Positions 186 through 35,196 of a stretch of 61,718 nucleotides of DNA are shown here, piece after piece. Where the stretch lies: IMG/VR virus record IMGVR_UViG_3300021180_000012, positions 1-61,718 of that record. One strand, written 5' to 3'. Every line of letters starts with the position of its first letter. The stretch's first letter is position 1. The translations under genes and the position numbers were made by a program. Below the pieces are notes generated by a model, which searched no databases, was not told the origin of the DNA, and worked only from the letters and a program-made list of their open reading frames with translations. Source of the DNA: a virus (lineage: Duplodnaviria; Caudoviricetes).

Positions 186-204
186 GACTGAGACCTCCTT
201 CTAT

Positions 205-278
205 ACTGTAGGTCGGATTTGAACCAGCGACCTCCCCAATGGTGTTAGGGGCGCTCTACCAGACTGAGCTACTACAGT
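205..278 (-). tRNA. tRNA-like element or pseudo-tRNA, anticodon undetermined
   Basis: Perfect 7-bp acceptor ACTGTAG/CTACAGT, D arm GCTC-AGTCTGGTA-GAGC, T loop GGTTCAAATCC; the 18-nt anticodon arm lacks U33 and the T stem has a mismatch. Confidence 0.7.
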
Positions 279-2350: not shown

Positions 2351-3210
2351 GTTTTTGCTCCATCTCGATAGATTTGGTAGGGTATCAGCCTCTGATAGTA
2401 GTGTTTTCGTGAATACGTTTGCAGAGTATGAGTGCCAGCGGCCAGCGCCCCCTTCATATGAAAAGGGGGATGGGGGTACCCTACCATGCTTGTATGGCTC
2501 ACAGTCCCTGATAGCCGGTGTCGATGCACACTCCCCACCCTATAGGTGTCAGACGCTGTGAACCCTCACGTACAGCACGGTTAGGGACTGTGTACAGCGA
2601 GCTATCAGCGTGTGTGAGCCGGTGTTGCTCTGTGTGCGTGTGTGAGGGTGTCAGACGCTGATAGGGTGTGCTATGGGTACGTTCCGTACCACTAATAATG
2701 CCGTACCAGAGCACAATTCACCCTCTTGCACTTGCTTGCATACATCACATGGGTTGATACCTCGCAAGCTCACCACACCGTACCGACTGCCTAGCGTGCT
2801 ATTGATGTGAGCACAGCATACGGCCACATATAGAACCCTGTCAATCGACCATAGATCTAATCACAGTATTGACAGCTATTGACACAACATACCCCATCGA
2901 TAACGCCGTTTTAATGTCCCGCTCGCAAGCTCGCGAGACGAATAGACCAATTCGACCGTACCCGTTGCTCGCTAACAGCCATGTACCGCCGTCTGCTCTA
3001 CTCTGTACAGCTAATTCGCCCCTAGAATGGCCGGTTAAACCGTGACGCTTTCGCGTCTAGAATGCCCGCACAGCGTTCAGCAGGGTAAATCACCCCATGT
3101 GCACGGCTACAACGGCACACACGGCCACACAGCAAGCTTTAACCGTGCTTTGCGTCAATCGACCTAACCGCCATATGCACACAGCACAGCACCGTGCTAT
3201 AGTCCACACA

Positions 3211-3244
3211 ACAAAACAGAGCACATCAATCAAGGTGTGCTCTG
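3211..3244 (-). terminator. Rho-independent terminator ending the early transcript
   Basis: Minus strand CAGAGCACAC-loop-TGTGCTCTG followed by TTTTGTTG. Confidence 0.65.
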
Positions 3245-3289
3245 CTCTGTACTCAGTATTCGATTGTTCGCGGATCTAACCGCCGATTA

Positions 3290-3847
3290 TTACGTATCCT
3301 TCTTTCGGTTCACGTCGACGGAACCCGTATAGTGGGGTAATTCCATCTTGACGGTAACATTCCCTGATATCTCAATGGTTTGCTCTGTCAATTCGTACGT
3401 GTACACACCTTCCGACCATTCGCCGTAACTAGTTGTCGTGACAAACTGATAGATACCTTTGTGCTCGCGAACGTCGACAACTTGATAACCGCCGGAACCG
3501 TTATTAGCGTAAACGGTGCGACCTTCGCTAATCGCTTGCTTGACTTCCTCAATCGTGTACCGCTTGATAACCGGCTCAATTGCACAGTCAGAGCTAGTAC
3601 CTTGCTCACGGCCACGGTAATAGGCGCTGATTGCATCGTTCAGCGTGTTGTATGTGTCGTCTGCCGGTTGACCGTCGACGCCAATATACCACGGTTGGGT
3701 ATTGCGCTCGCCAAACGTATCAAACGGTATGTGCTTGACTTCGTATACCATGCCGAGCAGATTGACGCGGTATAGACCTGCGCAAACCTTGCGTTTACCT
3801 ATCGTGGCTAATCGACCGTCATTTAGTTGTACCTGTACGTTTTTCAT
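3290..3847 (-). CDS. Hypothetical early protein
   Basis: GGAAGG RBS before ATG 3847 (MKNVQVQL). Confidence 0.75.
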   Translation of the reverse strand: MKNVQVQLNDGRLATIGKRKVCAGLYRVNLLGMVYEVKHIPFDTFGERNTQPWYIGVDGQPADDTYNTLNDAISAYYRGREQGTSSDCAIEPVIKRYTIEEVKQAISEGRTVYANNGSGGYQVVDVREHKGIYQFVTTTSYGEWSEGVYTYELTEQTIEISGNVTVKMELPHYTGSVDVNRKKDT

Positions 3848-3863
3848 AGTCTGACACCTTCCT

Positions 3864-4118
3864 TTAAGCATTCAAGCACTTGCGCGAACATACCATCTTG
3901 CTGTGATACAAACCGCCGTCTGTCAATAGCCGGGTATTGTACTCTGCTTCCGTCTCATTGGCGTTATCGTGCTTCCATGATGATACCCGCTCAATTGCTT
4001 GCTTGTATTCGCTCGCGTCGACTGTGACTAACGCCGTACCATTCGGTTTGATGTGCTTTCCACATTCGTCACAGCCATCACCAATTGGCCGAACAACTTT
4101 TAATACCTTGTCTCTCAT
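3864..4118 (-). CDS. Hypothetical early protein with Zn-ribbon-like CxxC...CxxxC
   Basis: GGGAGGG RBS; directly downstream of the promoter at 4166-4194. Confidence 0.75.
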   Translation of the reverse strand: MRDKVLKVVRPIGDGCDECGKHIKPNGTALVTVDASEYKQAIERVSSWKHDNANETEAEYNTRLLTDGGLYHSKMVCSRKCLNA

Positions 4119-4165
4119 AGTCTGAACCCTCCCAGAAAAGTCAATTGATTGATTAGTACAGTGAT

Positions 4166-4194
4166 AGTATATCAGAGCTAACAGCGTCTGTCAA
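4166..4194 (-). promoter_or_regulatory. sigma70-type early promoter
   Basis: TTGACA-17-TATACT. Confidence 0.9.
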
Positions 4195-4560
4195 CCCTAT
4201 TATGGTTATTCTGCAAACTTTCTTTAATCCGTTCTCATCTTTCTGGGAATAGGTATAACCATAGGTCGCGAACCCGGCCAATTGAGCACAGCGAACATTC
4301 GATCTAATAGTGTCTGCGAACCGTAAAAATAGTAGAATACCCATTCTTGACCACAGAACGCACGCACAGCGATTGATACCCGGCTCACGACAATACACTC
4401 ATAAAATTGTCTGCGTGCGCTGTGCGTGCATCCCCATCGGGAAAAACGGCCAATTAACACACCCTAATATGCACATCCGACACACAGCCGGATTATCGAC
4501 AGTAGACAGAGCTTGACAGCACAGACAGCGTAGTGTCAACGGTGTTGACTAGAGCAGACA

Positions 4561-4597
4561 CAAAAATACCCGCTCACCTTTGACAGCAAGCGGGTAT
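4561..4597 (-). terminator. Rho-independent terminator
   Basis: Minus strand ATACCCGCTTGC-loop-GTGAGCGGGTAT-TTTTG. Confidence 0.85.
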
Positions 4598-4622
4598 CGA
4601 TCGATATTAGGTTGACCGGCGA

Positions 4623-5792
4623 TTAGCGCGGTACAATCTTGACAGTCAAGGCCGGTGCCGACCTTTGCGGTTTGAATGCGAACGTATACCCGGTTCCTCC
4701 CTTAACCTTGACGTTCTGCGTACCCTTCCCGCTTTCGGAACCCTCAACATACTTCCAACCGGAACCGAGCACGCTGTACCCTTCCGGTGCACTCACAGTG
4801 TCTGTGAGCCCCTTTGCAATCAGGTACTCATAGGTGAGCTTGTAACCTTTGGGTAACGTCTGCTCACCTTCCGCAAGGATTTCAGCAAGACGGTATTCCG
4901 ACTGATAGCACCGTCGAACGCTCGCGAGGTACGTATCACGTGCAACCGGCGTGTGTCCGTGAGCACGGCCATACGTAACCGCGTAGTTACGGGATGCACG
5001 CGCGTTCGCCAATTGATCGATTGCAAGCTCAATCGCAGACACTGATAGCAACGGCCATGTATTCCAGCGCTCGCCGTACAGTTCCTCGCGTGACTTGCCG
5101 GGTTCCTTAACCTTCGCAACCTTTGCGACCTTCGCCGGTGCCGTGGCCTTGACGGTTCCAACCTTCGCCGTTTGCGTGCTCTTGCCGGTTGCCGTTGTCT
5201 GCGTCTGCGAACCCTTCGCCGGTGTTGTCGTGCTCGCCGTGGCCGTGATACCATTCGCACGGTTATACTGCATTTTGGCACGGCCATATGTGAACTTATG
5301 AGCAGTCAAGCGCTTTTTGTAAGCGTCTGCCGGTTCGTTCCGCTTTTTCGCGGGTTCCGGGTTCGTGAGTACCCATTGCTCATAGGTTGTGAACAGTTTG
5401 GGTGTCTTAACCTTCGCCGGTGCCGTGGCTGTGGCCGTCTTGCCGGTGCTCGCAGGTTTGGCCGGTGCGCTCGCCGTGGCCTTGACCGTGGCCTTAACGG
5501 GTTCCTTCGCCGTGGCCGGTGCAACACGAACGCGAGCAGTCACCTTGACCGGTGCGGAAGTCTGCGCAGGTTTGACCGGTGCCGTGGCCGGTTTGCTCGC
5601 CGGTTTGGTGCTCTGCTTGCTGTCGTGAAGTTCTGCAAGGTCGCGAGCAACGGTGAACCCTTTGACGCTATCAACCTTCTTGCCGGATAGTGTGATATCC
5701 CAATTCTTAGATGTGGGATTGAGAGTAAGCAGATACGAACCCGCTTTGCCCTTCGCCGTGTGCGTACCGTTTGCGTTCTTTAACCAGTTCAT
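4623..5792 (-). CDS. Basic Lys/Ala/Thr/Pro-rich (histone H1-like linker) early protein, putative DNA-binding
   Basis: PAK/TAK/VAK repeats between small globular segments; own promoter and terminator; GAAGGG RBS. Confidence 0.85.
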   Translation of the reverse strand: MNWLKNANGTHTAKGKAGSYLLTLNPTSKNWDITLSGKKVDSVKGFTVARDLAELHDSKQSTKPASKPATAPVKPAQTSAPVKVTARVRVAPATAKEPVKATVKATASAPAKPASTGKTATATAPAKVKTPKLFTTYEQWVLTNPEPAKKRNEPADAYKKRLTAHKFTYGRAKMQYNRANGITATASTTTPAKGSQTQTTATGKSTQTAKVGTVKATAPAKVAKVAKVKEPGKSREELYGERWNTWPLLSVSAIELAIDQLANARASRNYAVTYGRAHGHTPVARDTYLASVRRCYQSEYRLAEILAEGEQTLPKGYKLTYEYLIAKGLTDTVSAPEGYSVLGSGWKYVEGSESGKGTQNVKVKGGTGYTFAFKPQRSAPALTVKIVPR

Positions 5793-5865
5793 TGTCTATG
5801 TCCCTTCTGATTGTGTGGCCGGGTTGACCGGCCTAGTCGATATTCAAAAATGAGCGTGCGTATAG

Positions 5866-5895
5866 ATCATAGCACACTGTGTATAATCCTGTCAA
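5866..5895 (-). promoter_or_regulatory. sigma70-type early promoter (extended -10)
   Basis: TTGACA-18-TATGAT preceded by TGn. Confidence 0.8.
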
Positions 5896-6467
5896 GCCTT
5901 GATTAGTTCGGCATTATCATACGCCACGAACCCGGAACGTTTGCCGTTGATAAACAACTCAACGCCGTACAGGTTACGCCATTCGCGCAGACTGTTGCAC
6001 AGCACCGCATAGCTCGCAAACGGCACTTGACAATAGAACCGTACGCAGAGCAGTCTATGATAGTGCCATTCCACACGCAGAACACCGGAACCCTTCCAAG
6101 TGCTATTGTGATAGATCGATACCCGGCCTACCGTGCAACCGTCTTGCAACCGTGATACCCATTCACGCAAACCGCGCAAGTTCCGCGAACGCTTGACGGC
6201 AACACCGGTCAAACCGTCTATTAACCGTACCTCGCGAGCTTCGAACGCTTGCATGTTGACTGCTCGCCAACCTTCCGACTGTGCACCGCTCTCAATCCTG
6301 AAAGCATTTTTAAGGCCATACTTGACAGGGATTGAGTATTCCTGCTCGCGTGTTACCCATGTTTGGGTACGGCCATTCCTGCGAGCACGTACCGGTGTGC
6401 CGTCTGCGTTCGTGTTGCTCGCGTGCTCAAAGTCACCGGCGTTGACTGCTTCAAACTTACTTAACAT
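5892..6467 (-). CDS. Hypothetical early protein
   Basis: GGAGG RBS; RxNGxTxTWxT motif seen in phage early proteins. Confidence 0.8.
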   Translation of the reverse strand: MLSKFEAVNAGDFEHASNTNADGTPVRARRNGRTQTWVTREQEYSIPVKYGLKNAFRIESGAQSEGWRAVNMQAFEAREVRLIDGLTGVAVKRSRNLRGLREWVSRLQDGCTVGRVSIYHNSTWKGSGVLRVEWHYHRLLCVRFYCQVPFASYAVLCNSLREWRNLYGVELFINGKRSGFVAYDNAELIKA

Positions 6468-7008
6468 CGTTCGTTACCTCCGATAGTTCGCGTGCTGTGC
6501 GCTCATCTGCAAGTCTGCGCAGACGGGATATCACACCGTCTGACTTGACACCATAGCCAACCTTGCGTTTAGTGCGCTTTACCCGGCATATGTCCATATC
6601 GCCACGGTTCACGCCGTGCCATTCGAACCCGTCAAGGTAAAACCATACGTCTGTGCGCTGAACCCTTGACCAAACACCGGGTACGAACATATTGGACTGC
6701 TTGTAATACTCAACCCAGAGCGTGAAATCACTAGTCCAATTGGTTACGCACTTCGTACGGTTCGTACCCTCCGATACACCGCCGTCTGTGCGCTCATAGC
6801 GGTACGGTTTGTCACCTACCGACAGGTACAGCGTGTTGACACCCTTTGATACCATAAACTCAATGTCAACGATTGCTGCACACTGATAGCAGATTTTACG
6901 CTCTGTCGGTTCGCCGTGGTCAACCGTTGCGTACCCGGTTGTGCATGTGCCGTGCTCGCTCACGGTGTGGCCGCAAGACAGCAATTCGATTGTGTTACCA
7001 GTTTGCAC
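6457..7008 (-). CDS. Hypothetical early protein (Cys/His Zn-binding motifs); likely GTG start at 7008
   Basis: GGAGG 8 nt upstream of GTG; CGH...CxxC. Confidence 0.7.
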   Translation of the reverse strand: MQTGNTIELLSCGHTVSEHGTCTTGYATVDHGEPTERKICYQCAAIVDIEFMVSKGVNTLYLSVGDKPYRYERTDGGVSEGTNRTKCVTNWTSDFTLWVEYYKQSNMFVPGVWSRVQRTDVWFYLDGFEWHGVNRGDMDICRVKRTKRKVGYGVKSDGVISRLRRLADERTARELSEVTNDVK

Positions 7009-7429
7009 GGTTGACACCTCCGCACATTCCAGACAACGAACCGACAGGGAACCCGTATCGATCGAACGCAAGGTTGTGTAAATCTTCCTGCGAGCATGTG
7101 ACGTGCAGAGGGTACGCAAACGTTCCGGTGCTCTGCTGTGCTTGCTTAGCACACCACGTGAACGCCGTACCCTTTTGTTTCTGCGTAGTCACAGAAAAAC
7201 GTCTGTCAGTGACTGTAAGCGTACCGTACCGGTTGCTAGTCGATTTATCCTCATAGGTGTGGACACCGGAACCGGTATTTTCGTAAACAGCTATCAGAGT
7301 ACCATAGCTGTAAACGGCTATGTTGCCGTTCTCATCTTTCAATCCCCACAGAGCACCGGCATTGATGGCGAGCTTTTTGAAGCTCTGAACCTTGACCATT
7401 CGGCCACTTGTTAACTTTGCATCTAACAT
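6995..7429 (-). CDS. Hypothetical early protein
   Basis: AAGGAG RBS; YSYGTxIA...SxTTxKQ motif typical of a small phage family. Confidence 0.75.
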   Translation of the reverse strand: MLDAKLTSGRMVKVQSFKKLAINAGALWGLKDENGNIAVYSYGTLIAVYENTGSGVHTYEDKSTSNRYGTLTVTDRRFSVTTQKQKGTAFTWCAKQAQQSTGTFAYPLHVTCSQEDLHNLAFDRYGFPVGSLSGMCGGVNRANW

Positions 7430-7444
7430 AGGTTGGTTACTCCT

Positions 7445-7705
7445 TTAACCTTTGTTCGTCATATATCCGCACAACTCTAGTGTCATACGGGAATAGAATT
7501 GACCGTCGACTGTGTAAACGCCAATGTTATAGTCACTAACCGCCGATACCAGTATACAAGCACCGTTACGGTTTGTCAAGTTCACAACCTTTGTGACTTT
7601 CAATAATGCTCGCAAGGTGTCCATAGTGTACCTCTCTATCGACCGATTAACATGATAACCGCGTCTATCAGCACTGACATTGACGGAATAGCGATTAGCA
7701 ACCAT
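7445..7705 (-). CDS. Hypothetical early protein (first gene after the 7753-7782 promoter)
   Basis: AGGTGAG RBS; operon position. Confidence 0.65.
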   Translation of the reverse strand: MVANRYSVNVSADRRGYHVNRSIERYTMDTLRALLKVTKVVNLTNRNGACILVSAVSDYNIGVYTVDGQFYSRMTLELCGYMTNKG

Positions 7706-7752
7706 ACCATTGTACTCACCTACTTTCGATCTAACCTTATTGAACTGTGAAC

Positions 7753-7782
7753 ATCATATCACAACCTAGTACCGTCTGTCAA
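7753..7782 (-). promoter_or_regulatory. sigma70-type early promoter with AT-rich UP element
   Basis: TTGACA-18-TATGAT (TGn); A/T tracts at 7796-7820. Confidence 0.85.
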
Positions 7783-7916
7783 TCCCATTATCGGCATTTT
7801 TCGAAAATACTTCAAAAATAGTTCGCAGACACTGACAACCGTATCTATACCAGTTATCAGACGCTGTTAACCTGCAATAGCTGTGTTTTAGTTGTTAATA
7901 GCTATCAGAGACTGAC

Positions 7917-7945
7917 TTGACTATCAATAACTATCAAAGTACAAT
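7917..7945 (+). promoter_or_regulatory. Divergent plus-strand sigma70-type promoter into non-coding DNA
   Basis: TTGACT-17-TACAAT. Confidence 0.6.
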
Positions 7946-8217
7946 ATAGGTAGGGTGAACACCAATTCTATTCATATGAAGCCGATTTTCCGGCTTTAAC
8001 CGGACCCGCCCACCAACTACAGACCAACAGACCCCGAGACCTCTCGGAGACCCCACACATAGGCGGGGCAACTGACCTCAGCCGCCGCGAGGCTCCGTAG
8101 AACTTTGAAGTGAACCCCGAAAATAATTCCAGGTTCAAAACAGATGCCCCTAAGCCGACTTCCTTTTCTCAGACACTGAGACCCCAGAACCCCTTCTAGA
8201 ACCCCGATAGAGACCCC

Positions 8218-8378
8218 ATAATAAAAACGGTGATTTAGTACCCCCCAATATAGGTATAAGACCATATCTACTTTTACTTAAAACTATACTCATATGTACG
8301 TAAAATCTAGTATCTGTTCATATGAAATGTAAGCGAAAACATACATATTGGGGAGTACCGGAACGCCGTTTTTATTAT
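8218..8378. repeat. Inverted-repeat element A (34-bp arms, AT-rich spacer), origin-like
   Basis: Arms 8218-8251 and 8345-8378 are 28/34 complementary; homologous to 35197-35316. Confidence 0.8.
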
Positions 8379-8557
8379 TGCCCATCTGGAAACCGCCGAT
8401 CTAGCACACCCTAACACCCACATTGAGATGGGAATTGCCCATTTTCGTTCGCAGTCATTGAGAACCCTGAAAAACAAAAAAGCGACCCTCAACATGAAGG
8501 CCGCTTGCCATAACTTGGCATTTTCAAAAATGGTGCTACCACCCCTAACTCACCGTT

Positions 8558-14199: not shown

Positions 14200-14853
14200 C
14201 TAGAAGTTCTCGGCTTCGAGAACTCCCTCCATGATGCGAATGCCCATTACGGCAAGCTGCTTAGCCTCTGTGTAGAGATCGCTAGCGTTGCCGTCATTGG
14301 CTGCACCGTTGATGACTGTGTTCAGATGCGCCTGACAGCACTCGCCGTACTCTTCACCGGCTGCGAGGATCAACTGAGGCACAGGCTGGTTAGGAAACTT
14401 AGTAGTAGCCTTTATGTACTCGGCTTTGACATCGTGGAGTAAGACACCGATCTCTGCCGGTCGCGTCGGTTGGCTAAGCATTTCAAGTAGCCGCGCCAGT
14501 GCAACATCAGCAGTATGCCCATCCCAGACATCAGCAAGCTCGCGCTCAGCTACTTTGAAGCTATCCCAGTGCTCGTGCTTGTAGTGGTTGCTGACCTGAC
14601 CCGTAGGCAGTTGCGCTACCACAATAAAATAGCGACCGCCAAAGCACGGCTCTCCGTCGTGATGCAGCTTAGACTTATGTATGCCATACAGCCCCTGCGA
14701 AGCCCACATGTTGAACAGCAGGGCATTGTAAACACGGCGGTACTCGTAGAGTTCCCCGAAGGTGTGAAAGCCATCAGAGATACTGTTGCGGTCCTCGTCG
14801 GTGTTGCAGTTCATAAGCAACTGATAGTTCTCGTTTGTCATGTCCGTAGCCAT
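14200..14853 (-). CDS. WDGH-family protein fused to a MazG-like NTP pyrophosphatase-type helical domain
   Basis: SDGFHTFGELY, QVSNHY and WDGHT motifs; C-terminal EEYGE...E..Q motif. Confidence 0.7.
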   Translation of the reverse strand: MATDMTNENYQLLMNCNTDEDRNSISDGFHTFGELYEYRRVYNALLFNMWASQGLYGIHKSKLHHDGEPCFGGRYFIVVAQLPTGQVSNHYKHEHWDSFKVAERELADVWDGHTADVALARLLEMLSQPTRPAEIGVLLHDVKAEYIKATTKFPNQPVPQLILAAGEEYGECCQAHLNTVINGAANDGNASDLYTEAKQLAVMGIRIMEGVLEAENF

Positions 14854-17446: not shown

Positions 17447-18007
17447 CTACTCAAAAAGCAATATGTTGAACACGGATTGGAGATAGTAGTACACAGGCAC
17501 TTCAAGCCACTTCTTACCGTTCCCTGCTATGTTCAACACCTCGATACCATTCGAGACTATCCAGTAGGCGACTTCGTAGGGATCGATCTGCTTCTCCCAA
17601 TTGCCGCCCCCTGCATACCACTCGTTCTCCATGAAGATATCGAGATGAGGTTTTTTGTAGTGTCTGATAGCTGCCAGTGTGCAGTATTCGCCAGGAGTGT
17701 TGAAGTCGACACATAGACGGATCGTAGCGTCTGCGGCTTGAACATTCCTGTGTGTGCGGGTACGGTAGTCTGGGCAATCGTCCCGCATCTGGTACATCCA
17801 CGCGTATCCTGGTTTCTTCCCTCGTTGGGTAAGAAAGCCTGTGGGCATATGACCGCCGGTCTTGAAACCCATTTCCTTAGCGATTGCAACACCGGCAATA
17901 TCTGCCCCTACTTGCCCTCCCGAGATAACCTTACGCAACGTCGTAGGGTTTGGCACAGGGGGCGTCAGGATACGTCTTTGTTGGTATCCTTTGACTATTA
18001 CTCCCAT
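17447..18007 (-). CDS. SLOG-superfamily (MoCo-carrier/YpsA-like) protein
   Basis: KVISGGQVGAD, RTxxNV..ADAT, VLNIAGN. Confidence 0.85.
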   Translation of the reverse strand: MGVIVKGYQQRRILTPPVPNPTTLRKVISGGQVGADIAGVAIAKEMGFKTGGHMPTGFLTQRGKKPGYAWMYQMRDDCPDYRTRTHRNVQAADATIRLCVDFNTPGEYCTLAAIRHYKKPHLDIFMENEWYAGGGNWEKQIDPYEVAYWIVSNGIEVLNIAGNGKKWLEVPVYYYLQSVFNILLFE

Positions 18008-20872: not shown

Positions 20873-21466
20873 TTACTCGGCTACCGGTTCAGCCGCTGCA
20901 ACTTCCCATACCAGCGGATCGAGACTTTCCAGCATTTTGATAATGGCGAGCGCTGCGTCTCGTTGGTCCGGTGTGCAGCCTTTATTCTCCCAGTCTTTGT
21001 ACGTACGATCGTAGAACTCCTGGTAGGTTCCAATGGCGCAACCACACCTCACTTTGCCAGGGCTGTAGTGGTTGATAGGCCACTTAACAAAGTATACGAC
21101 CATAGGGGCAAGCTTATTACCGATCGTGGCCTCTTCACCGATCGTGGCCTCTTCACCGATCGTGGCCCATGCACCGATCGTGGCCCTGTCACCGATCTTG
21201 GCCCATGCACCGATCGTGGCCTCTTCACCGATCTTGGCCCATGCACCGATCGTGGCCCTGTCACCGATCTTGGCCCATGCACCGATCTTGGCCCATGCAC
21301 CGATCTTGGCCCATGCACCGATCTTGGCCTCTTCACCGATCTTGGCCCATGCACCGATCTTGGCAGAGCTTGCCACAAGGCAAAACCATCCGTCAGTCGC
21401 TGTGTACTTACCATCTACGAGATCGTAGTTCTTGATGTCTTTCCACAACCTATATCTCTCAGCCAT
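20873..21466 (-). CDS. Hexapeptide-repeat (left-handed beta-helix) protein
   Basis: About 14 x A[KT]IG(AW/EE/DR); C-terminal VRCGC; AAGGAG RBS. Confidence 0.85.
   Translation of the reverse strand: MAERYRLWKDIKNYDLVDGKYTATDGWFCLVASSAKIGAWAKIGEEAKIGAWAKIGAWAKIGAWAKIGDRATIGAWAKIGEEATIGAWAKIGDRATIGAWATIGEEATIGEEATIGNKLAPMVVYFVKWPINHYSPGKVRCGCAIGTYQEFYDRTYKDWENKGCTPDQRDAALAIIKMLESLDPLVWEVAAAEPVAE
21119..21364. repeat. 18-bp tandem repeat, 13 full units plus a partial unit
   Basis: accgatc[t/g]tggc + ccatgc/ctcttc/cctgtc. Confidence 0.95.
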
Positions 21467-21502: not shown

Positions 21503-23071
21503 CTACTCGGCTAGTTTGATGGTTTCGATCTTAATAGCCGTCTGTTTGGTCTTGTTCCCGATCCTGCGGAGCACACCGTACTCCATGTTCTTGCCGCACT
21601 TGTAGAGGCCGATGAACCTGCCTTCGATAACAGGGCTTGCGTCGTTGCCGCCGTCGTGGAACTTGCGTTCAGCGGTTACATCCTTGTTCATGTACTTCTT
21701 GGTGTCAGCATCCGATAGCCGAGTTGGTTGTTCTGGCTTCTGCGGCATAGTAGGAGGTACAGCAGTGCCAGCCTGGGCTTGTTGAACACCCTTAGCAATG
21801 CCGTCCTTTATCTGCTTATCAGCCTCCGCGATCGTAGGCCCCGAGTTGTCGAATGCAGCCTGGGCGCGATTTGCTGCACCCACCTTCGGATTGAGGTGTT
21901 CGGCCATACCATCGGCAGTGTCGACGTTCACCGGCTCCTCGTAGAGTTTGACACTATCCCACTTCACCATGAGAGGAGTTTTCGGCTTCTCTGGGCGAAG
22001 AATAAATGGGCCGCTCTTTCCGTCGCCAGTGCTCATAGAGCCTTCTTGCAGGATGCCGGTCACGCCCATTGTCTGACCTGGTACACGCTGTGCACGCTCG
22101 GCTGTGACCTTCTTGCCGACCATCGGCGCAAGGTACTCGGTAATCTCCTCGGGTGTCGGTGGCTCGCGGTTAACGCTCACGAGTTCAGCGGCAGGTTTGG
22201 GCGTCTGGGCTTTGTTCTCCTCAGTCCCTGAGAACCGCCCGGTCTTGGTTCCCTGCTGGTTTACCATCGGAGGGTTGGCTTCTTTCGGCCACAACGATAC
22301 CCGCCCATCAGCCCACGCCTCGATGCTCTCCTTGAAGTCCTCGAAGCTGAACGGGAACGCGAGCATCGACCACACGATACGCAACGAGGTCTCGCGGAAC
22401 TCGGGTGTCACCGTCCGATCTTCCGGCAGTTTGAATATCTGCCAGGTCTCCATCCAATCGGCCACAGCCGCTGTGAACTCCTCCGTCGACATCTCGGTGG
22501 TCAGACGGTCCCACAGGCCGACGATATGCTTCGGGACCGACCCGTCGATCTTGCGCCCTTTCATGCGCTCGCTTTCGCTGAACTTCTTAGCGACCGATGC
22601 GCGAGCTTCCGTGGAGATCGCCGGGTTGATTTCGAACAAGGTGCACAGCGTCTGAAACGGCTCGAAGTTAACGAGGTAGCCCGGTACGCTTTCGAAGTGC
22701 TCATCGCGGATCTGGATCAAGCACTCCTTGACCCGTCGAAGCTGATCGGGGAACACAGTACCGGGTACGTCGGACAGCGAGATGTTCACAGTGACTGGGG
22801 GCAGTACGCTTGCCATTAGGAACTTGAGGTGCTTTTCGGCTATGTCCTTTGCTTCATCAGCCGATAGCGCCCCCATGACAGCTACCTTCTCACGGCGCTG
22901 TGCCGGGGCATCAGGGAGGCCCGTAGCGCCTTCTCCGATCTCTTCGTAGCCGTGGTCGACATAACCCTGATGCTCATACCAGTCGGCGTACTTCATCACA
23001 GGGTCTTGCATAGCGTTCTGTTTGGCCGCGTATGTGCGGTACTCTTCAAGTCGGTCATTGGGGATTGCCAT
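21503..23071 (-). CDS. Multidomain hypothetical protein (contains a PolA-like GTKTGRFS peptide and two SH3-like C-terminal modules)
   Basis: GAGGAG RBS; high GC3; own promoter candidate. Confidence 0.85.
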   Translation of the reverse strand: MAIPNDRLEEYRTYAAKQNAMQDPVMKYADWYEHQGYVDHGYEEIGEGATGLPDAPAQRREKVAVMGALSADEAKDIAEKHLKFLMASVLPPVTVNISLSDVPGTVFPDQLRRVKECLIQIRDEHFESVPGYLVNFEPFQTLCTLFEINPAISTEARASVAKKFSESERMKGRKIDGSVPKHIVGLWDRLTTEMSTEEFTAAVADWMETWQIFKLPEDRTVTPEFRETSLRIVWSMLAFPFSFEDFKESIEAWADGRVSLWPKEANPPMVNQQGTKTGRFSGTEENKAQTPKPAAELVSVNREPPTPEEITEYLAPMVGKKVTAERAQRVPGQTMGVTGILQEGSMSTGDGKSGPFILRPEKPKTPLMVKWDSVKLYEEPVNVDTADGMAEHLNPKVGAANRAQAAFDNSGPTIAEADKQIKDGIAKGVQQAQAGTAVPPTMPQKPEQPTRLSDADTKKYMNKDVTAERKFHDGGNDASPVIEGRFIGLYKCGKNMEYGVLRRIGNKTKQTAIKIETIKLAE

Positions 23072-23096
23072 TTTATTCTCCTCGTAAACTCTGATT

Positions 23097-23127
23097 ACTA
23101 TACGGATCGCCGTTTTTATTACGGCAA
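23097..23127 (-). promoter_or_regulatory. Candidate promoter with 19-bp spacer containing a dyad
   Basis: TTGCCG-19-TATAGT; GCCGT-AATAAAA-ACGGC dyad. Confidence 0.45.
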
Positions 23128-23138
23128 AATGTTAGAGG

Positions 23139-23597
23139 CTAATTCTCATCAGCCTCTTCGGGGTCTAGTAGCTCTAACTTGCGCAGGAAAGCTTCGGCTC
23201 TGGGTTCGTCACCCTCAAGCTCTCCGAGGACAGCACGGGCGAACTGTCCAACAGACCAAAACGGTATGGTGCTCGCGACATGCCGACGAAGGATTGACAT
23301 CTCGTCAGCATCAAACGTCGTCAGGGTCTGTGAACCCTCCTGCTTCTCTGGGATAAGAGACACAGCTAGATGAGGGTAACGCAGATCCAGTTGGTGATGT
23401 CGCTCGCCGTCGTCGCCGTCCATGACCACGTAGAACTCGCTGCCACTAACAGGGTTCGGGTTCTGCCCAGGTTCGAACTCCCGTAGCTCACCTTGCACTG
23501 GTCGACCAAAGTTTATCGAGTGTCCTTTGACTTGCTTGCCGACCCAGAGCTTGAGAGTAGCCGGATCGTTACTCTTCGCGATGTCTGCGATTTCCAT
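23139..23597 (-). CDS. Hypothetical protein
   Basis: GAGG RBS. Confidence 0.75.
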   Translation of the reverse strand: MEIADIAKSNDPATLKLWVGKQVKGHSINFGRPVQGELREFEPGQNPNPVSGSEFYVVMDGDDGERHHQLDLRYPHLAVSLIPEKQEGSQTLTTFDADEMSILRRHVASTIPFWSVGQFARAVLGELEGDEPRAEAFLRKLELLDPEEADEN

Positions 23598-23676
23598 TAT
23601 ATCCTCTATCCCAGAAAGGGTAAAGGCCAGCCCCTGCTATCAGAGGCTGACCGATGTTACAGAAGCCGGTTAGGGC

Positions 23677-25077
23677 TTAGGGTTTGCGAAGCTGGTCGAA
23701 CGGTACCTCGCGGGACACGCGGCCCACCATGACCGTCGCGATCGAGGTGTCGGCGTTCAGGGACTGCACGGTACCGCGAAGATCCTCGGACGGTTTCTTC
23801 GGGTTCGCGAAGATCACTTCCTCACCGACGTTCACCTCGACATCGACAAGGACCTCGGAGAAGGCTACAGTGTAGACCTTCTTACCTACCTTGACTTCGA
23901 GGCTTTCACCCTCGTTGTCGATGCTCTCGCAGATGCCGGTGTATTCCTTGCCGTTCTGCTCGAAGGTCACTTCGTCGCCAATGTTGATGGTGATGCCGCC
24001 GCTCTCAGCGGCTGCGTCCTCGCCGGTCTTGGTGGCGTCGTCGAAGGCAACGGTGTAGCTCTTGCCGCCACAATCGACGCTGAGTTCCTGCTCGGCGGCG
24101 TCGACCTCGGTAACGGTGCCGGTGCGCTCCTTGCTGCCGACCTTCCAGGTGATTTCGTCACCCACGCTAAAAGGTGCGTCGTCCGGTGCTTCCTCACCTT
24201 CCTTCTTGAGATCGGAGAGGCTGACAGCGTACAGCTTCTTGCCGACCTTGACCTGGGCCTCGTCGCCGTCGATGCTGTCGATGGTACCGGCATACGTCTT
24301 GCCGCCCTGTTCGAACTCGACATCATCGCCTTCGGAGAAGTCGCTGCCCCCGGCGTCGTCCGGGTCCTCGTTCTTCGCAACCGCCTCGTAGGGAACCGTG
24401 TAGGTTTTCTTGCCTACAGTGACTGAGACCTCGCTCTCGGTCTCGTCCACGCTGTCGACGATGCCGACCATCTCCTTCGAACCCACAGTGATTGTGACCT
24501 CGTCGCCCTCGGCGCATGGAGCCGGTGGAGTTTCGGTCTTGGGTTTCGCCGCCGCGCCAGCTTTCGGTTTGGATGCCGTGGTACTCTTGGCGCTGCCGCC
24601 CTTCGCGAGTTCGGCGGGGAGCTTGTAGCCCTCCTCGCGCTCCTGCAAGTAGACGTTCTGGAAGCCGGTCTGCGTGTTGGTCTTGAGCTTGATGCGCCAA
24701 ACCTGCTTCTGCTTCACGGCGTCCTCAAACAGCTTCTCAAGCTGTGTGGGATCGAGTTCGGAGGCGTCATTCCCTGTGAGCGCTTCGAGGCGCTTGATGG
24801 TCTTGCTGCTGATGTCGCCCTCGTAGAACAGACCCTGCCACTCGTACTTGGTCTCGTTCACGCGGTCGCCTTCGAGGATGTACCAGCCGTGGAGCGAACC
24901 CCACGCCGGGGGGTTGTCCTTCGTACCCTGCGACATCTTGACTTCGACGCCGTTGTACAAGGCGACGTATTCGCCGTCATCCCAATTGCTTTCGCCGGAG
25001 GAGTGGGCCGTCTCGACGGACGAACCCCAGTTTTTCTTCGCGTTCTTCAACAATGCGTTGAGATCGTTAGCTGCCAT
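23677..25077 (-). CDS. DUF669-like ssDNA-binding protein with five tandem acidic SH3/Tudor-like repeats
   Basis: N-terminal DGEY.A...E.K.S...ILEG...FQNV pattern near AAA_24; repeats GD[ED]V...G...S[IV]D...V.VGKK.Y.V. Confidence 0.7.
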   Translation of the reverse strand: MAANDLNALLKNAKKNWGSSVETAHSSGESNWDDGEYVALYNGVEVKMSQGTKDNPPAWGSLHGWYILEGDRVNETKYEWQGLFYEGDISSKTIKRLEALTGNDASELDPTQLEKLFEDAVKQKQVWRIKLKTNTQTGFQNVYLQEREEGYKLPAELAKGGSAKSTTASKPKAGAAAKPKTETPPAPCAEGDEVTITVGSKEMVGIVDSVDETESEVSVTVGKKTYTVPYEAVAKNEDPDDAGGSDFSEGDDVEFEQGGKTYAGTIDSIDGDEAQVKVGKKLYAVSLSDLKKEGEEAPDDAPFSVGDEITWKVGSKERTGTVTEVDAAEQELSVDCGGKSYTVAFDDATKTGEDAAAESGGITINIGDEVTFEQNGKEYTGICESIDNEGESLEVKVGKKVYTVAFSEVLVDVEVNVGEEVIFANPKKPSEDLRGTVQSLNADTSIATVMVGRVSREVPFDQLRKP

Positions 25078-25209
25078 TGATACCTACCTTGTTTTGTTGT
25101 TGTAGTACTTCTCTGGGAATGAGATCTGCTAGTACACTGCGCTTTCTCGTTCGGAACGTTTCCCACGGCAGAGCCGGTCCTACTTGCCTACTTGCGCAGT
25201 GTACAGTGT

Positions 25210-25692
25210 TTACGAACGATCCAGCGTAGCCGCCGCGTTGGGTTGATCGGTGTTCGCTGTGTCGTCGTGAACATGGAGGATGACGGAGTATCGGTGAGCC
25301 GTCAGTGGATCGGGTTGAAGTTGACCAGAGGCCGTGTAACTGTGACCGCCGACCGCGTAGTTGCCGGTCATGACGCCAGCGTTTGTGATGCCGCCGACGA
25401 GATCGTGACCGATGCCGGATTGCCCGTTGAAGTCGATGGTGCCAGCGGTCATTGCGCCGGATGCGTTGATGGAGAAGTGGACATCGCCGCCGTGTGCGGT
25501 CGTATCGGCTGAGAACGTTCCGTTGTAGTTGCCCTGGTAGCTCGATGTTGTACCACCGCCGCCACCGCCCGGTGAGGAGGACCCGCCCCCGCCACCACCG
25601 CAACCCGTAACCGAGGCGAGAACCGCGAACACTGCTGCTGCCAGCATTCCCTTACCGTAGGGGCTGCCACTGATTGATGTGAATACCTTCAT
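25210..25692 (-). CDS. Lipoprotein
   Basis: Start MKVFTS (GAAGGG RBS); lipobox VTG-C followed by a poly-Gly/Ser linker and a beta domain. Confidence 0.8.
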   Translation of the reverse strand: MKVFTSISGSPYGKGMLAAAVFAVLASVTGCGGGGGGSSSPGGGGGGTTSSYQGNYNGTFSADTTAHGGDVHFSINASGAMTAGTIDFNGQSGIGHDLVGGITNAGVMTGNYAVGGHSYTASGQLQPDPLTAHRYSVILHVHDDTANTDQPNAAATLDRS

Positions 25693-25733
25693 TGCTTTGC
25701 CCTTCTTTCGAATGTGATATAGAGCAAACGCTG

Positions 25734-26216
25734 TTAGCGCTTGCGAAGAGTGTTGATGTAGCGGCGTCGTGGCCCGACTTCGGAGCCTTTGAGAACTCCC
25801 GTCCACTGCCCTGACTTGGCCGGTCGCGAGCGCTGCTGCGAGTAGAGTTGATCGGAGGTCATGAATGGCCGGTATCGGCCTTTGATTGTCTTGTTGTCCA
25901 TGGTTTCCCTTGCGTAGTATTCGAGACGTATTGTTCCGGCTAACACAGCGTCTGCAATCTGCCGTCGCTCGTTCTTAGTGGTTAGGCGCATCTGCCACTG
26001 CGTTTTGGATAGCTCTCCGTCTTGGAGTGCACAGTTCTGCGAGACCTCATCAGGGCGCTTGTATCGGGTTAGATTAAAGCCGTGACCGCCTTGTGACCAA
26101 TCGTTTGACGCCTGAGCAACTATGCCAAACTTAACCGCTCCACCGTTTACTGTATAGGCTACCTGCCTACCCGCAAACTCTGACACGTCACTCCATTTAG
26201 AGAGAACTTTCCACAT
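25734..26216 (-). CDS. Hypothetical protein
   Basis: AAAGG RBS; operon packing. Confidence 0.7.
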   Translation of the reverse strand: MWKVLSKWSDVSEFAGRQVAYTVNGGAVKFGIVAQASNDWSQGGHGFNLTRYKRPDEVSQNCALQDGELSKTQWQMRLTTKNERRQIADAVLAGTIRLEYYARETMDNKTIKGRYRPFMTSDQLYSQQRSRPAKSGQWTGVLKGSEVGPRRRYINTLRKR

Positions 26217-26229
26217 TGACCTTTGCTCC

Positions 26230-27165
26230 TTAGCGACGGCCCTTGACGGTGAACTTCGCCTTCACTTCGGAAAGCTCAGCCTTGCGTCGTAGCTCGCCGT
26301 CGTCCTTTTGTTTGTTTTCGTAGGCGTAGACGATGTTAGCGTATGCTTCTTCCGCACTATCGCCCATAGGGATTGATATGACTGGATCGCCGCCGGGTGT
26401 GTTGAAGTTGTTCTTCATTCGGCACTTCGCGTCAACGTTTTCGTCACCGCGAATTACCAGCTTACGTTCACCGCCGACATAACAGTAGCACGCGGTAATA
26501 TCGCAGAAGCCGTTCAGGAAGCGTCGCCCCTTCTCCTCGATGGATGCGATAAGCTTCATGTTCTTAACCCCTGTAGCCTTCTGCATTTCCTTTTCCAGAG
26601 TGTGGGAGATAAACACCACACCCCGGCCTGTTGCAGTCAGCCGCATTATCTGGTCCTTAAACTCTGCGAGCCGCCGATTGTTGCCCTTGTTGAAACCGAG
26701 AGACCCGCTGTTGATATCGTCAGGATCATCGTCGGCTTGCTCGATCACGAACTTACCGGCGAGATCCCATGCGAAGTCTGCGGTGTCAAAGGTGATGGTC
26801 TCGTACAGATCAGAGGCTACGATCTGGTCAATGACCTTCACGAACTGTTTCTTCCAACTCGTGAACTGCCCTTCCCGTGGAAGCCTAACAATCTCTAAGA
26901 AGTCACCACCTGGTTCGAAGAATAGCGAAAGGTTATCGGGGAACATTGAAGCAAGCTCCGTTTTCCCTATGCCTGGTTCGCCGTGGATGAAAAGCTTCGC
27001 AGATCGGAGATTTCCGCGTGGCTTCTCAGCCTTTGTAGGAAGAGATAGGTCGATCTCATTTGGTCTGACTATCGATCGTTTCGCCACCGTAGGGGCGCTA
27101 ACGACTGACCGCGTAACTGGTTTCGCGGCTGACCTACCTCCGATCCTCGCTGTTATTGTTGCCAT
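26230..27165 (-). CDS. AAA_24 / Sak4-like ATPase (single-strand annealing recombinase); likely start MATITAR
   Basis: HGEPGIGKT Walker A, TITFDT Walker B, VFISH, AKCR; GGAAGG RBS. Confidence 0.85.
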   Translation of the reverse strand: MATITARIGGRSAAKPVTRSVVSAPTVAKRSIVRPNEIDLSLPTKAEKPRGNLRSAKLFIHGEPGIGKTELASMFPDNLSLFFEPGGDFLEIVRLPREGQFTSWKKQFVKVIDQIVASDLYETITFDTADFAWDLAGKFVIEQADDDPDDINSGSLGFNKGNNRRLAEFKDQIMRLTATGRGVVFISHTLEKEMQKATGVKNMKLIASIEEKGRRFLNGFCDITACYCYVGGERKLVIRGDENVDAKCRMKNNFNTPGGDPVISIPMGDSAEEAYANIVYAYENKQKDDGELRRKAELSEVKAKFTVKGRR

Positions 27166-27342
27166 ATAGTAGCCACCTTCCGGTTTATCGTAGTGTCTGA
27201 GAGCCTTCGTTTCCTCGTCCGATGTTTCCAGCAATGGGAGAGGCTAACGTATTCAGAAAGCTCGATCTAACCGTACGGATGGCTGTTGTGAATGTTCAGC
27301 GGGATCGGCGGCTGCTTTGGCCGTGCTCGCCCGACAAGATAG

Positions 27343-27371
27343 ATTATACAGGTCATCCGCACAGTTGTCAA
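27343..27371 (-). promoter_or_regulatory. Perfect consensus sigma70 promoter with UP element
   Basis: TTGACA-17-TATAAT; AAATATTTTGAAAAATTTTGC upstream. Confidence 0.92.
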
Positions 27372-27420
27372 TAGGATTTCGAAAATATTTTGAAAAATTT
27401 TGCGCCCATCTGAAAATGCC

Positions 27421-27639
27421 CTAGCGAGAGCAGAGACAGGTGTAGCAGATGCCCTCGCTTTCATGCATTCTATCAGCCTCTGAGTACGTATCCATTTCTA
27501 GGCCACATAACGTCCGGTTTGGGTCCTCGACTTTGAACACATGCCATTCGTCCCAACCCGCAGGCTTTGCGAACCTCTTGCCTATAGGTGCGATGAGGAG
27601 TTCGTCGGCCTCATGCAGCGCATCGTTTTCGCGTGGCAT
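27421..27639 (-). CDS. Small Zn-binding protein
   Basis: WH...TLCG...CxxC; GAGGGAGG RBS. Confidence 0.7.
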   Translation of the reverse strand: MPRENDALHEADELLIAPIGKRFAKPAGWDEWHVFKVEDPNRTLCGLEMDTYSEADRMHESEGICYTCLCSR

Positions 27640-28763
27640 TAGTCGTCACCTCCCTCATCGTTTACCAGTTCGGGGAATACGTGCAGACGTTTGGTGTAGA
27701 GCTTGTGGGCGTCGTGCGAGCCACCGCAGATCGGCAGGAACTCACAGGGTTTGTTCCACTTCATACACGCACCGGAGTTGCGGTACGATACATAGCCCCC
27801 GAGAGACCATTCGTACATCCGCTCAATCTGGTAGTCGAGATCACGGTCTCTGTACGTCTGTATCTCAGCCTGTGACACGGAGATCTGGTTGCGACAGAAG
27901 TATTCGTCGCCCTTTTCCTCCATGTGCTTGTCGACACGCTCTAGGTACTGAGCTAGGCTTTCGGGCTTCTTGTAGTAAGTACCTGTGAACTTTTGCCCAG
28001 GTCGCTTGATGAGGTTGTAGTTGAAGCCCTCGGGCCACTCACCATAGTTGTGCAGGACACAGAGGCTGTAGATCATCATCTGCAAGTCGAATGCCATCTT
28101 CTCCGCTAGGTAGAAGTCCTCGATCTGCGATTTGGTCTTATGGTCTGTGATCCATAGCTTACCGTTGATGCGCTCGATCAAGTCGATCTTACACCATATG
28201 AGTATCGTCACCCCATTGCGCAGTTTGTAGGGGAACGACAGTACCTTCTCAACGGCTATGATCTGTCTCTTGGTATCGCGCACAGCCCACCGCTTGAAGT
28301 ATCGTTTGATGACAACCGCCGAAAGACCGGCTGTCACCTCCATAGCCTGTTCCTCGGCAGGGTCGAGATCCTTAGACTTCGCGGCTTTGGCATCGAGCGC
28401 CTTGTTTGCCAGCAGTGACCAATACTTAATCTCTTGCCCAGAGAGAACAGTCTTTGAGAGTTCCCCTACTCTCTGGGAGTAAGTCTTATCAAGTACGTCA
28501 TGGAAGTAGCTGCCAAACTCAAGAGGTCGATCATGGCTTGCTCCGTTCCGCTCCAACCCCTGCATGAGCCGTAGCTCGGCTTTCTTCGGGCAGAGGTTGA
28601 ACAGCCCTAGACCGGACTGCGTTATGCCGTCGCGCTCCATCATCCAAAAATGCTCATCGGAGATCCGGGTTGGTCCCTTCGAAGGTTTTAGCTTCGATAT
28701 GCTGTCAAGGGCTGTCATTACGGCTTGATTAGGCTTTGTACCAGCCCGTACACGTATCTTCAT
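27639..28763 (-). CDS. PD-(D/E)XK (RecB/Cas4-like) exonuclease
   Basis: FGSYFH, KIDL, TDHKT, QMMIY, C-terminal Cys cluster. Confidence 0.9.
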   Translation of the reverse strand: MKIRVRAGTKPNQAVMTALDSISKLKPSKGPTRISDEHFWMMERDGITQSGLGLFNLCPKKAELRLMQGLERNGASHDRPLEFGSYFHDVLDKTYSQRVGELSKTVLSGQEIKYWSLLANKALDAKAAKSKDLDPAEEQAMEVTAGLSAVVIKRYFKRWAVRDTKRQIIAVEKVLSFPYKLRNGVTILIWCKIDLIERINGKLWITDHKTKSQIEDFYLAEKMAFDLQMMIYSLCVLHNYGEWPEGFNYNLIKRPGQKFTGTYYKKPESLAQYLERVDKHMEEKGDEYFCRNQISVSQAEIQTYRDRDLDYQIERMYEWSLGGYVSYRNSGACMKWNKPCEFLPICGGSHDAHKLYTKRLHVFPELVNDEGGDD

Positions 28764-28824
28764 AGGGTTTGTTACCTTCCGACTGCGCCATACAGCTATG
28801 TCGCCGGGTGTTAACCTGCGCAGT

Positions 28825-30532: not shown

Positions 30533-30535
30533 CCT

Positions 30536-34709: not shown

Positions 34710-34711
34710 TG

Positions 34712-35116: not shown

Positions 35117-35141
35117 TTAGACACACTTCCGGCGCTGACCC

Positions 35142-35171: not shown

Positions 35172-35196
35172 GAAATATTTTCAAAAATCTTGCCGG

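Follow-up and report, generated by a model that had tools for sequence, protein, structure and literature searches.

Why should some 5.5 kb of a phage genome lack short restriction sites that the rest of the same molecule carries in large numbers? The question is raised by the 61,718-bp stretch of DNA analysed here (the window), which is the complete virus record IMGVR_UViG_3300021180_000012, classed as linear and with a CheckV completeness of 100%. The sequence-only reading of this window had pointed to an early module at positions 2445-8000 that seemed purged of GCNGC, CCWGG and GGNCC sites, and had proposed that this DNA enters the cell first and encodes anti-restriction or takeover proteins. 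We found that site avoidance in this genome has two tiers, one genome-wide and one confined to the block, that the second tier acts at the level of the DNA, that the block holds host-type promoter sites, and that related genomes have gaps for other motifs at the same map position. The site-purged early module was delimited as 2439-8001 on the minus strand, from just past a GGNCC site at 8002 to just short of a GCNGC site at 2438.

Loss of short palindromes between 2439 and 8001

GCNGC occurs 380 times in the whole window and twice in 2445-8000, at 6875 and 6970; for CCWGG and GGNCC the window has 108 and 167 sites, none of them in that region. Outside it we counted 376, 108 and 167 sites, respectively. 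For the three motifs together, about 65 expected sites are reduced to 2. The count made by eye had given a stretch free of GCNGC up to about 6870 with only two sites beyond it, no CCWGG or GGNCC, and abundant CCGG and GGCC (49 and 26 by computation), and had placed the return of the motifs just outside the block at positions that were right to within one base (2438, 8002, 8081 and 8129). All of this was borne out. The nearest flanking sites are at 2438 and 8081 for GCNGC, at 1741 and 8002 for GGNCC and at 1975 and 8129 for CCWGG, and the longest gaps of the three motifs in the genome coincide at the block (4437, 6261 and 6154 bp; second-longest gaps, 1111, 1611 and 2871 bp). In windows of 5563 bp elsewhere, the counts were 37.7 ± 9.2 for GCNGC (minimum 23), 10.7 ± 3.9 for CCWGG and 16.9 ± 3.8 for GGNCC. 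The observation is confirmed, and is stronger than had been reported.

Markov chains trained on the block itself (orders 1-3, 300 simulations each) predicted 26.9, 32.3 and 22.8 GCNGC sites at orders 1, 2 and 3, and at each order 0/300 simulations came down to the 2 observed. The depletion of GGNCC and CCWGG was significant against orders 1 and 2 and not against order 3 (0.063 and 0.333), because the 4-mer sub-words of these motifs (CCAG, GGAC, GCCC and others) are themselves scarce in the block. The site density of the block thus differs from that of the rest of the genome after correction for composition, as the sequence-only reading required, with GCNGC falling below the Markov chains of all three orders, the other windows and the codon nulls described below.

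Thirty-two palindrome classes, the 16 four-base palindromes and the 16 classes of the form XYNY'X', were then compared. The lowest observed/expected ratios in the module belonged to GANTC (0), GGNCC (0), GCNGC (0.08) and CTNAG (0.22), with CATG next (0.44). CCGG (2.76), GGCC (1.73) and CGNCG (1.02) were not depleted, ACNGT was over-represented 1.86-fold, and every one of the 12 CCNGG sites of the module was CCSGG. The ratios in the rest of the genome were 1.21 for GCNGC, 0.75 for GGNCC, 0.92 for CCWGG and 0.97 for CTNAG. These four motifs are unconstrained outside the block, and inside it the loss of CTNAG is less complete than that of the others.

GANTC behaves differently, in that it is avoided over the whole genome: 4 sites against 247 expected outside the block, and 0 against 15.4 inside. 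Fifty-six six-base palindromes had 8 or more expected occurrences; 26 of them fell below an observed/expected ratio of 0.2 genome-wide, against 135/3538 non-palindromic hexamers; the avoided ones include GCGCGC, CAGCTG, CTGCAG, GAGCTC, CTCGAG, GCATGC, GGATCC and GAATTC. This genome-wide purge of GANTC and of 26 palindromes had been missed by the sequence-only reading, and the block is not the sole site of avoidance. For the 26 avoided hexamers the block itself has 5 occurrences against 35.2 expected (P = 2.8e-10). That the block has the avoided set of the genome indicates that block and remainder have been subject to one and the same host pressure during their evolution, the local purge being a second tier.

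The vocabulary of the block is restricted beyond these motifs. It has 1480 distinct 6-mers, against 1761.6 ± 28.4 in 101 other windows, and about 280 six-mers found in any other window are missing from it. Low complexity was rejected as the cause, since the deficit remains when the gene for a 389-residue protein is removed (1401 against 1654.7 ± 35.3). Seventeen five-mers are depleted in the block at P < 1e-3 under its own order-2 model; 37 other windows average 2.8 such words and never exceed 5. Depletion also affects at least 12 further non-palindromic 5-mers (GCTAC, ACGAG, CCACC, GACCC, CTACA, CAGGC and others) and some 4-mers on both strands (GCCC, 0 against 15.5 expected; GGGC, 5 against 25.5). 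The depleted non-palindromic words may be further defence targets.

Both the codons and the amino-acid order of the module bear the mark of the purge. Two codon nulls were run on 3951 coding bases (1000 runs each). A synonymous shuffle within genes expects 12.3 GCNGC, 5.7 GGNCC and 3.8 CCWGG, against 2, 0 and 0 observed, and 0, 1 and 14 runs per 1000 reached the observed counts; a codon-order shuffle expects 23.8, 11.8 and 6.1, values from which 0, 0 and 2 runs per 1000 came down as far. Together the two shuffles indicate that about half of the GCNGC loss comes from codon choice and half from amino-acid order. The 389-residue protein has 56 Ala residues and no Ala-Ala pair (7.9 expected), just as had been claimed, and the sole Ala-Ala among the seven module proteins creates the GCNGC site at 6875. 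The absence of Ala-Ala is not a trait of this protein family, since four homologues (P0070, P0071, P0072 and P0067) tolerate 8, 11, 6 and 5 such pairs. Codon usage is shifted as expected (CCA makes up 3% of Pro codons in the block and 17% elsewhere). The 1750 non-coding bases of the block also lack GCNGC, GGNCC and CCWGG (0 each, against 11.8, 5.2 and 3.3 at the rest-of-genome rate). We conclude that the purge is motif-specific and acts on DNA, not on proteins or on general composition.

Syntenic relatives and the place of the block in the genome

Relatives of the phage were found as portal homologues on metagenomic contigs (52-72% identity) and as 13 loci in IMG/VR, from which four full-length records were compared. 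Three of these, G001 (61.7 kb, 41% GC), G002 (68.1 kb, 38% GC) and G003 (63.9 kb, 36% GC), have tblastn matches to 34, 31 and 32 window proteins, respectively, and are syntenic with the window's phage (G000). The fourth, G004, shares only 4 window proteins and was left out of the synteny test; the metagenome-scan loci L042 and L046 were rejected as too distant (27-28% identity), and had no significant gaps. Hypervariability is concentrated in the module, which contributes 1 of the 31-34 matching window proteins in each relative, and the gene for the 389-residue protein is its only gene with homologues in G001, G002 and G003.

The longest site-free gap in each genome was sought with 52-60 short palindromic motifs after trimming of the terminal overlaps. 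The top-ranked gap of all four genomes lies between a replication-side gene and a 254-residue packaging-side gene, an interval that makes up 14%, 15%, 32% and 22% of the four genomes. The motif differs from phage to phage: GCNGC in G000 (4437 bp, 27.3 sites expected, corrected P 3.1e-8), GCWGC in G001 (5245 bp, 12.6 expected, corrected P 2.6e-2), AGCT in G003 (6220 bp, 13.6 expected, corrected P 9.0e-3) and TGCA in G002 (1988 bp, 11.4 expected), where the gap is not significant (corrected P 0.22). CCWGG ranks third in G003, and its gap is also within the interval. With broad, synteny-based module limits, G003 keeps its depletion of AGCT (4 against 18-28 expected) and CCWGG (1 against 10-12). 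The homologue of the 389-residue protein in G001, whose module avoids GCWGC, has 1 Ala-Ala pair against 5.3 expected. Of the four phages, the window's phage thus has the pattern at its strongest; one relative has it clearly, a second weakly and the third not at all. Site-free gaps for different motifs at a common map position are what host-specific restriction avoidance in an early or leading region would be expected to produce, and they support it.

Other features of the window's phage are shared unevenly. GANTC is avoided genome-wide in G000, G001 and G002 and not in G003, and the restricted vocabulary has no counterpart in G001 or G003 and only a marginal one in G002. We also noted in G003 a gap of 14.8 kb free of CGNCG (21999-36842; 12.5 expected, corrected P = 0.01), which lies over structural genes outside the early module.

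All long open reading frames (ORFs) are on the minus strand of the record. Searches of PHROGs and Pfam identified a large terminase (60249-58363), a portal protein (58547-56892), a tape-measure protein of 1864 residues (47069-41475), a major-tail-like protein with fn3 domains and other tail proteins; the phage is therefore a siphophage. The replication block encodes an SNF2 helicase, a UDG-family protein, a PD-(D/E)XK nuclease, an AAA_24 ATPase, a family-A DNA polymerase (20809-18263) and a primase (17417-15300). Also among the replication genes, on the minus strand, are a cpYpsA SLOG-family protein (17447-18007), a hexapeptide-repeat transferase (20873-21466) and a WDGH-domain protein (14200-14853), which could have a role in DNA or nucleotide modification. 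In the order of transcription the map reads packaging, head, tail, replication, a protein of 654 residues, the non-coding region 8506-8002, the block 8001-2439, the lysis genes and a tRNA-Gly, so that the block has the replication genes on one side and the lysis and packaging genes on the other. The tRNA-Gly (204-278, minus strand), between the lysis and packaging genes, is called with the anticodon ACC, which is unusual in bacteria and phages.

The record ends overlap: bases 7-176 match the last 170 bases (in 61543-61718) at 99.4% identity, that is, the first 176 bases against the last 170-176. The map is thus circular as assembled, with a unit genome of about 61,542 bp. G001 and G002 have near-identical terminal overlaps of 236 and 181 bp at other map positions. 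Because the near-identical overlaps (176, 236 and 181 bp) lie at non-syntenic places in G000, G001 and G002, they were rejected as true short terminal repeats, and they point to a circular assembly graph.

The phage is an uncultured, virulent-type siphophage. Among 50,697 phage records, blastn found no match for the module or for 20 kb of the window, tblastn (E ≤ 1e-20) found none for the 389-residue protein or the portal, and the large terminase (TerL) and DNA polymerase reached 22-33% identity at best to those of cultured phages. Single-protein searches of IMG/VR with TerL, the 191-residue module protein and P0071 returned no close relatives, and the 654-residue protein had no usable match in the Atlas. 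The only public run to contain the phage is a soil metagenome, with 0.32 of the words present, as contigs at about 3x.

Promoters, genes and flanks of the block

Sigma-70-type matches of at least 10/12 number 13 in the genome; the block, with 9% of its length, accounts for 7, and 5 of these 7 are on the coding strand. Three have a TTGACA box and a TG extension and score 11/12: P1 (7753-7782; 18-nt spacer, TATGAT), P2 (5866-5895; 18 nt, TATGAT) and P3 (4166-4194; 17 nt, TATACT). P4 (2844-2815, 10/12) is inside a non-coding tail, and a fifth promoter-like site (7579-7551, 11/12) is within a predicted gene; like all features of the block listed here, they are on the minus strand. Three strong host-type promoters had been proposed; their presence was upheld and their number was not, as four intergenic sites and one intragenic site were found on the coding strand. 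Consensus-like sigma-70 sites also precede the replication module (35171, 35272 and 27371, minus strand; 12, 11 and 12 of 12), and host polymerase probably also starts middle transcription. The word CAGYGTCTG, with its complement, occurs 25 times in the genome, 8 of them in or at the edge of the module (2558, 2660, 4182, 4796, 5044, 7834, 7866 and 8178); two of these are beside or within promoters, and the word may be an operator.

Seven ORFs follow one another in the block. The first (7445-7705) encodes a basic protein of 86 residues, or of 59 from an inner ATG at 7624, and contains the intragenic promoter-like site. The second (6995-7429; 144 residues) is preceded by an AAGGAG ribosome-binding site. 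The third (6457-7152) is Cys-rich and encodes 231 residues from a GTG at 7152 or, from the likely start, a GTG at 7008 behind GGAGG, 183 residues; it carries both GCNGC sites of the module. The fourth (5892-6467) encodes a protein of 191 residues with an isoelectric point (pI) of 9.8, which has no usable Atlas match. The fifth (4623-5792; pI 10.1) encodes the 389-residue protein, and a hairpin followed by a T run, like that of an intrinsic terminator, lies at 4565-4598. The sixth (3864-4118) encodes 84 residues with four Cys in two pairs, zinc-ribbon-like judging from the sequence, and has a weak homologue in G003. The seventh (3290-3871) encodes 193 residues or, from the likely start at ATG 3847, 185 residues with a pI of 5.4; within the limits of the tool, this protein matched only itself among 5.8 billion clustered proteins. 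Sequence and fold suggest a second terminator-like hairpin followed by TTTTG at about 3211-3250.

The module proteins are mostly basic (pI 7.6-10.1, the single pI of 5.4 being the lowest), and two are Cys-rich. None of the seven matched a family above threshold in Pfam (E ≤ 0.1), PHROGs or PADLOC, the only matches in PHROGs and Pfam being below threshold; the claim that the block has only genes without a recognised family therefore holds for 7/7. An AlphaFold2 model of the 389-residue protein (mean pLDDT confidence score, 65.5) has confident domains at residues 1-60, 127-182 and 235-310, joined by disordered linkers of Lys, Ala, Pro and Thr. Foldseek found no match to this model in the PDB at E ≤ 0.001, and a search of 1.84 billion representatives puts the family at 16 members.

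Beyond the last gene lies a non-coding tail of 850 nt (2440-3290), rich in inverted repeats and ending in a palindrome at 2442-2473. As single-stranded DNA it folds well beyond its shuffles (z = -4.77, 20 shuffles). The first gene past the module is that of a GH25 endolysin (1592-2350), which has a normal site density.

On the other side, restriction sites occur in the upstream non-coding region (8002-8506). It includes the terminator of the preceding operon (8506-8480), seven GGGGTY words (8035-8217) and a 34-nt inverted repeat (8218-8251 and 8345-8378) that contains AATAAAAACGG. G000, G001 and G003 have in common the element TTATTGATAGTCAA (7917-7930), which lies upstream of their first early promoter, and both elements return at the corresponding position in relatives of 36-54% GC. 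TTATTGATAGTCAA and the inverted repeat with AATAAAAACGG may mark a packaging, terminal or origin site.

A candidate pre-early leading module and its known counterparts

A site-free block is of no use unless protection reaches the remaining DNA later, and we therefore read the block, in the direction 8001 to 2439, as a pre-early leading module, like the first-step-transfer DNA of T5 or the early region of T7-type phages, whose products neutralise restriction-modification (R-M) systems. We put the probability of this reading at about 0.55. Host RNA polymerase would transcribe the block at once from the four strong sigma-70-type promoters, and its products would neutralise R-M systems of the Fnu4HI (GCNGC), Sau96I (GGNCC) and EcoRII (CCWGG) types, and probably of the DdeI type (CTNAG), while the remaining DNA is not yet exposed or cuts in it are not yet lethal. 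The block itself would have to survive unprotected, so that selection would strip frequent sites from it, through context-dependent codon choice, avoidance of Ala-Ala and other dipeptides, and changes in non-coding DNA. The other 56 kb, covered by the module products, could keep these sites at near-random frequency, and sites that the module does not cover (GANTC and the 26 six-base palindromes) would be avoided over the whole genome. The anti-restriction function would be expected on this reading, as would an exposure of the remaining DNA that is staged or delayed, on the pattern of T5 first-step transfer or of slow entry of the T7 type.

Of what the sequence-only reading had drawn from the block, the purge, its action on DNA, its motif specificity and the promoter-rich character of the block have stood up to the counts, the nulls and the gaps in relatives. 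Its interpretation is supported in part, by the comparison with relatives and by precedent. The suggestion of a collapsed long terminal repeat has found no support, and is not favoured by a contig that bridges 2012-2687. Per-contig word depth in the one run was not doubled (3.2, 2.3 and 3.5 inside the block; 3.0, 3.3, 3.5 and 2.8 outside), which is weak evidence given the low coverage of about 3x and the use of contigs; such a run gives no starts or ends, and bins without cover (7940-8406, for example) are uninformative.

Several observations weigh against a leading module. One contig bridges 2012-2687, across the module border. Headful packaging with permuted ends may apply, and would leave no fixed leading end. 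Two GCNGC sites remain inside the block (6875 and 6970), and sites at 8002-8129 lie 1-130 bp past its border, 220-350 bp upstream of the first promoter, so that the leading end would need to sit almost exactly at the module border. With the broad, synteny-based limits, no motif passes both tests in G001 or G002. No module protein matches ArdA, KlcA/ArdB or Ocr in Pfam, or A1 or A2 in PHROGs. No phage RNA polymerase was found among 47 proteins scanned with Pfam and PHROGs, which together with the internal terminators argues against a simple, T7-style entry pulled by transcription. Finally, the perfect sigma-70 sites before the replication module (35171 and 27371) mean that host-type promoters are not exclusive to the block.

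Priority in expression, and not in entry, could also account for the purge. The whole genome would then enter at once, and only the module would have to stay uncut until transcribed; its products (inhibitors of R-M and of RecBCD), together with recombination genes, would rejoin or rescue cut molecules. This needs no fixed genome end and fits the circular assembly graph; the AAA_24 (Sak4-like) ATPase, the PD-(D/E)XK nuclease and the SNF2 helicase could support recombination repair, and the purged span coincides with the transcription units and no more, its limits being 220 bp upstream of P1 and the last hairpin. However, a Type II cut anywhere is normally lethal at single infection, so that weaker selection would be predicted than 2 against 37 sites, Pfam revealed no Gam-, Ocr- or Ard-type domain in the module proteins, and the documented cases, T5 and T7-like phages, rest on staged entry. 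We regard this explanation as unlikely.

It is improbable, too, that the phage avoids its own enzymes, with one or more early nucleases cutting host DNA at GCNGC, GGNCC or CCWGG while the module is present. The idea is in print for T5, where, as reported, Davison proposed that the DNA avoids an early nuclease of its own in connection with A1, and several of the module proteins are basic and Cys-rich and could bind DNA. Yet three or four specificities would have to come from seven small proteins without family matches, and neither Pfam nor PHROGs detected a nuclease domain in them; the 376 GCNGC sites in the rest of the genome would still need protection; and the relatives avoid other motifs even though the 389-residue protein is common to them.

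The purged motifs are typical targets of cytosine-5 methyltransferases, such as those of the Dcm, Sau96I and Fnu4HI types. If the DNA were methylated in its previous host, the first-acting part might be exposed to methyl-dependent (Type IV) restriction, or its early transcription disturbed, and the sites would be removed there; the module-specific motifs are indeed all short, C-containing palindromes of the 5-methylcytosine class. A Pfam scan of 20 non-structural proteins from outside the module revealed no domain of a DNA methyltransferase, and no phage-borne methylation is therefore in evidence. But CCGG and GGCC, also classic targets of this class, are over-represented in the module. We give this explanation little chance; it would still need the logic of a leading region, and is more a variant of the leading-module reading than its rival.

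The least probable origin is that of a foreign cassette, recently gained from a phage of another host that avoids these motifs genome-wide: the block does differ in GC content (50.8% against 54.1%), in its use of many 4-mers and codons, in its restricted 6-mer vocabulary and in gene content that is not conserved in relatives, but it has the genome's own avoided hexamers and its lack of GANTC, its borders coincide with transcription signals, the gaps of the relatives are at the same map position, and the gene for the 389-residue protein is vertically shared.

Returning to the leading-module reading, local avoidance would mark the DNA that a phage must expose unprotected, and the sequence by itself could thus reveal the polarity of entry and the pre-early genes, including those of phages never yet grown. 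The present case is unusually clean, having a footprint at the protein level and an internal control in the avoidance common to the whole genome. The seven genes without a family, and the conserved family of the 389-residue protein, are candidate inhibitors of Type II R-M systems. The predicted R-M repertoire of the host would include GCNGC, GGNCC, CCWGG and CTNAG, which would be neutralised, and GANTC and many hexamers, which would not. A general phage-encoded protein inhibitor of Type II enzymes with sites equivalent to 4 bp is not known to exist. More tentatively, and with lower confidence, we suggest that a wholly uncultured lineage of soil and environmental siphophages of about 61-68 kb delivers or exposes its genome in stages, like T5 but with unrelated machinery, that the hypervariable pre-early module is a source of new inhibitors of Type II enzymes with sites equivalent to 4 bp, and that the module, being purged beyond the four motifs, catalogues the defence specificities of its host.

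The first-step-transfer precedent invoked by the sequence-only reading is in print, for T5 and for T7-like phages. EcoRI restriction of T5 is reported to act only through sites in the first-step-transfer DNA, sites in late DNA being harmless, and EcoRI sites put into the first-step-transfer DNA are lethal (10.1101/866236). The block resembles that DNA in its share of the genome, about 8-9% (5.56 of 61.5 kb here; 7.9% reported for T5), in being free of sites that are tolerated elsewhere in the genome, in its proposed transcription by host polymerase from predicted promoters, and in a large untranslated end rich in inverted repeats, which may be compared, by analogy, with the injection stop region of T5. 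It differs in that none of the 7/7 module proteins is a homologue of A1, A2 or dmp in PHROGs or Pfam, that per-contig depth at about 3x gives no sign of a long terminal repeat, that the genome is half the size of T5, and that virion and replication genes are unrelated. A DnaA-box array like that at the T5 injection stop signal was rejected: TTWTNCACA, with at most 1 mismatch, occurs 60 times genome-wide against 66.1 expected, and there is none, and hence no cluster, in 2440-3172.

T7-like Murciavirus phages share with the window's phage strong, co-oriented host promoters, genes all on one strand and a hypervariable early region. According to PMC12455610, the Type I system Mme2I restricts these phages only if its motif is in the first-injected region, so that the position of the motif, not its mere presence, decides. 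In contrast to T7-like phages, the window's phage is a siphophage with a tape-measure protein, shows neither a single-subunit RNA polymerase nor a member of the Ocr family in the scan of 47 proteins, lacks a strongly acidic module protein (lowest pI, 5.4) and has terminators inside the module. Moreover, four frequent Type II-like motifs are purged here, down to the protein level, against one rare Type I motif in the Murciavirus account. Thus, homology does not place the block in the T5 system, and it is not T7-like either.

Leading regions of conjugative plasmids, also described in PMC12455610 as depleted in R-M targets and as encoding anti-defence genes, share with the proposed module the loss of targets from first-entering DNA, but belong to another kind of mobile element, which enters as single-stranded DNA. 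The genome-wide avoidance known from phages is seen here in GANTC and in 26/56 six-base palindromes; what is different is the added, strictly local tier, whose motifs are unconstrained elsewhere. Selection by R-M on a sub-genomic scale, as set out in PMC12455610, would in this way come to include a new phage lineage and Type II-like motifs that are frequent. The kind of phenomenon is known, and the block is an unusually clear instance of it in a lineage without a cultured member.

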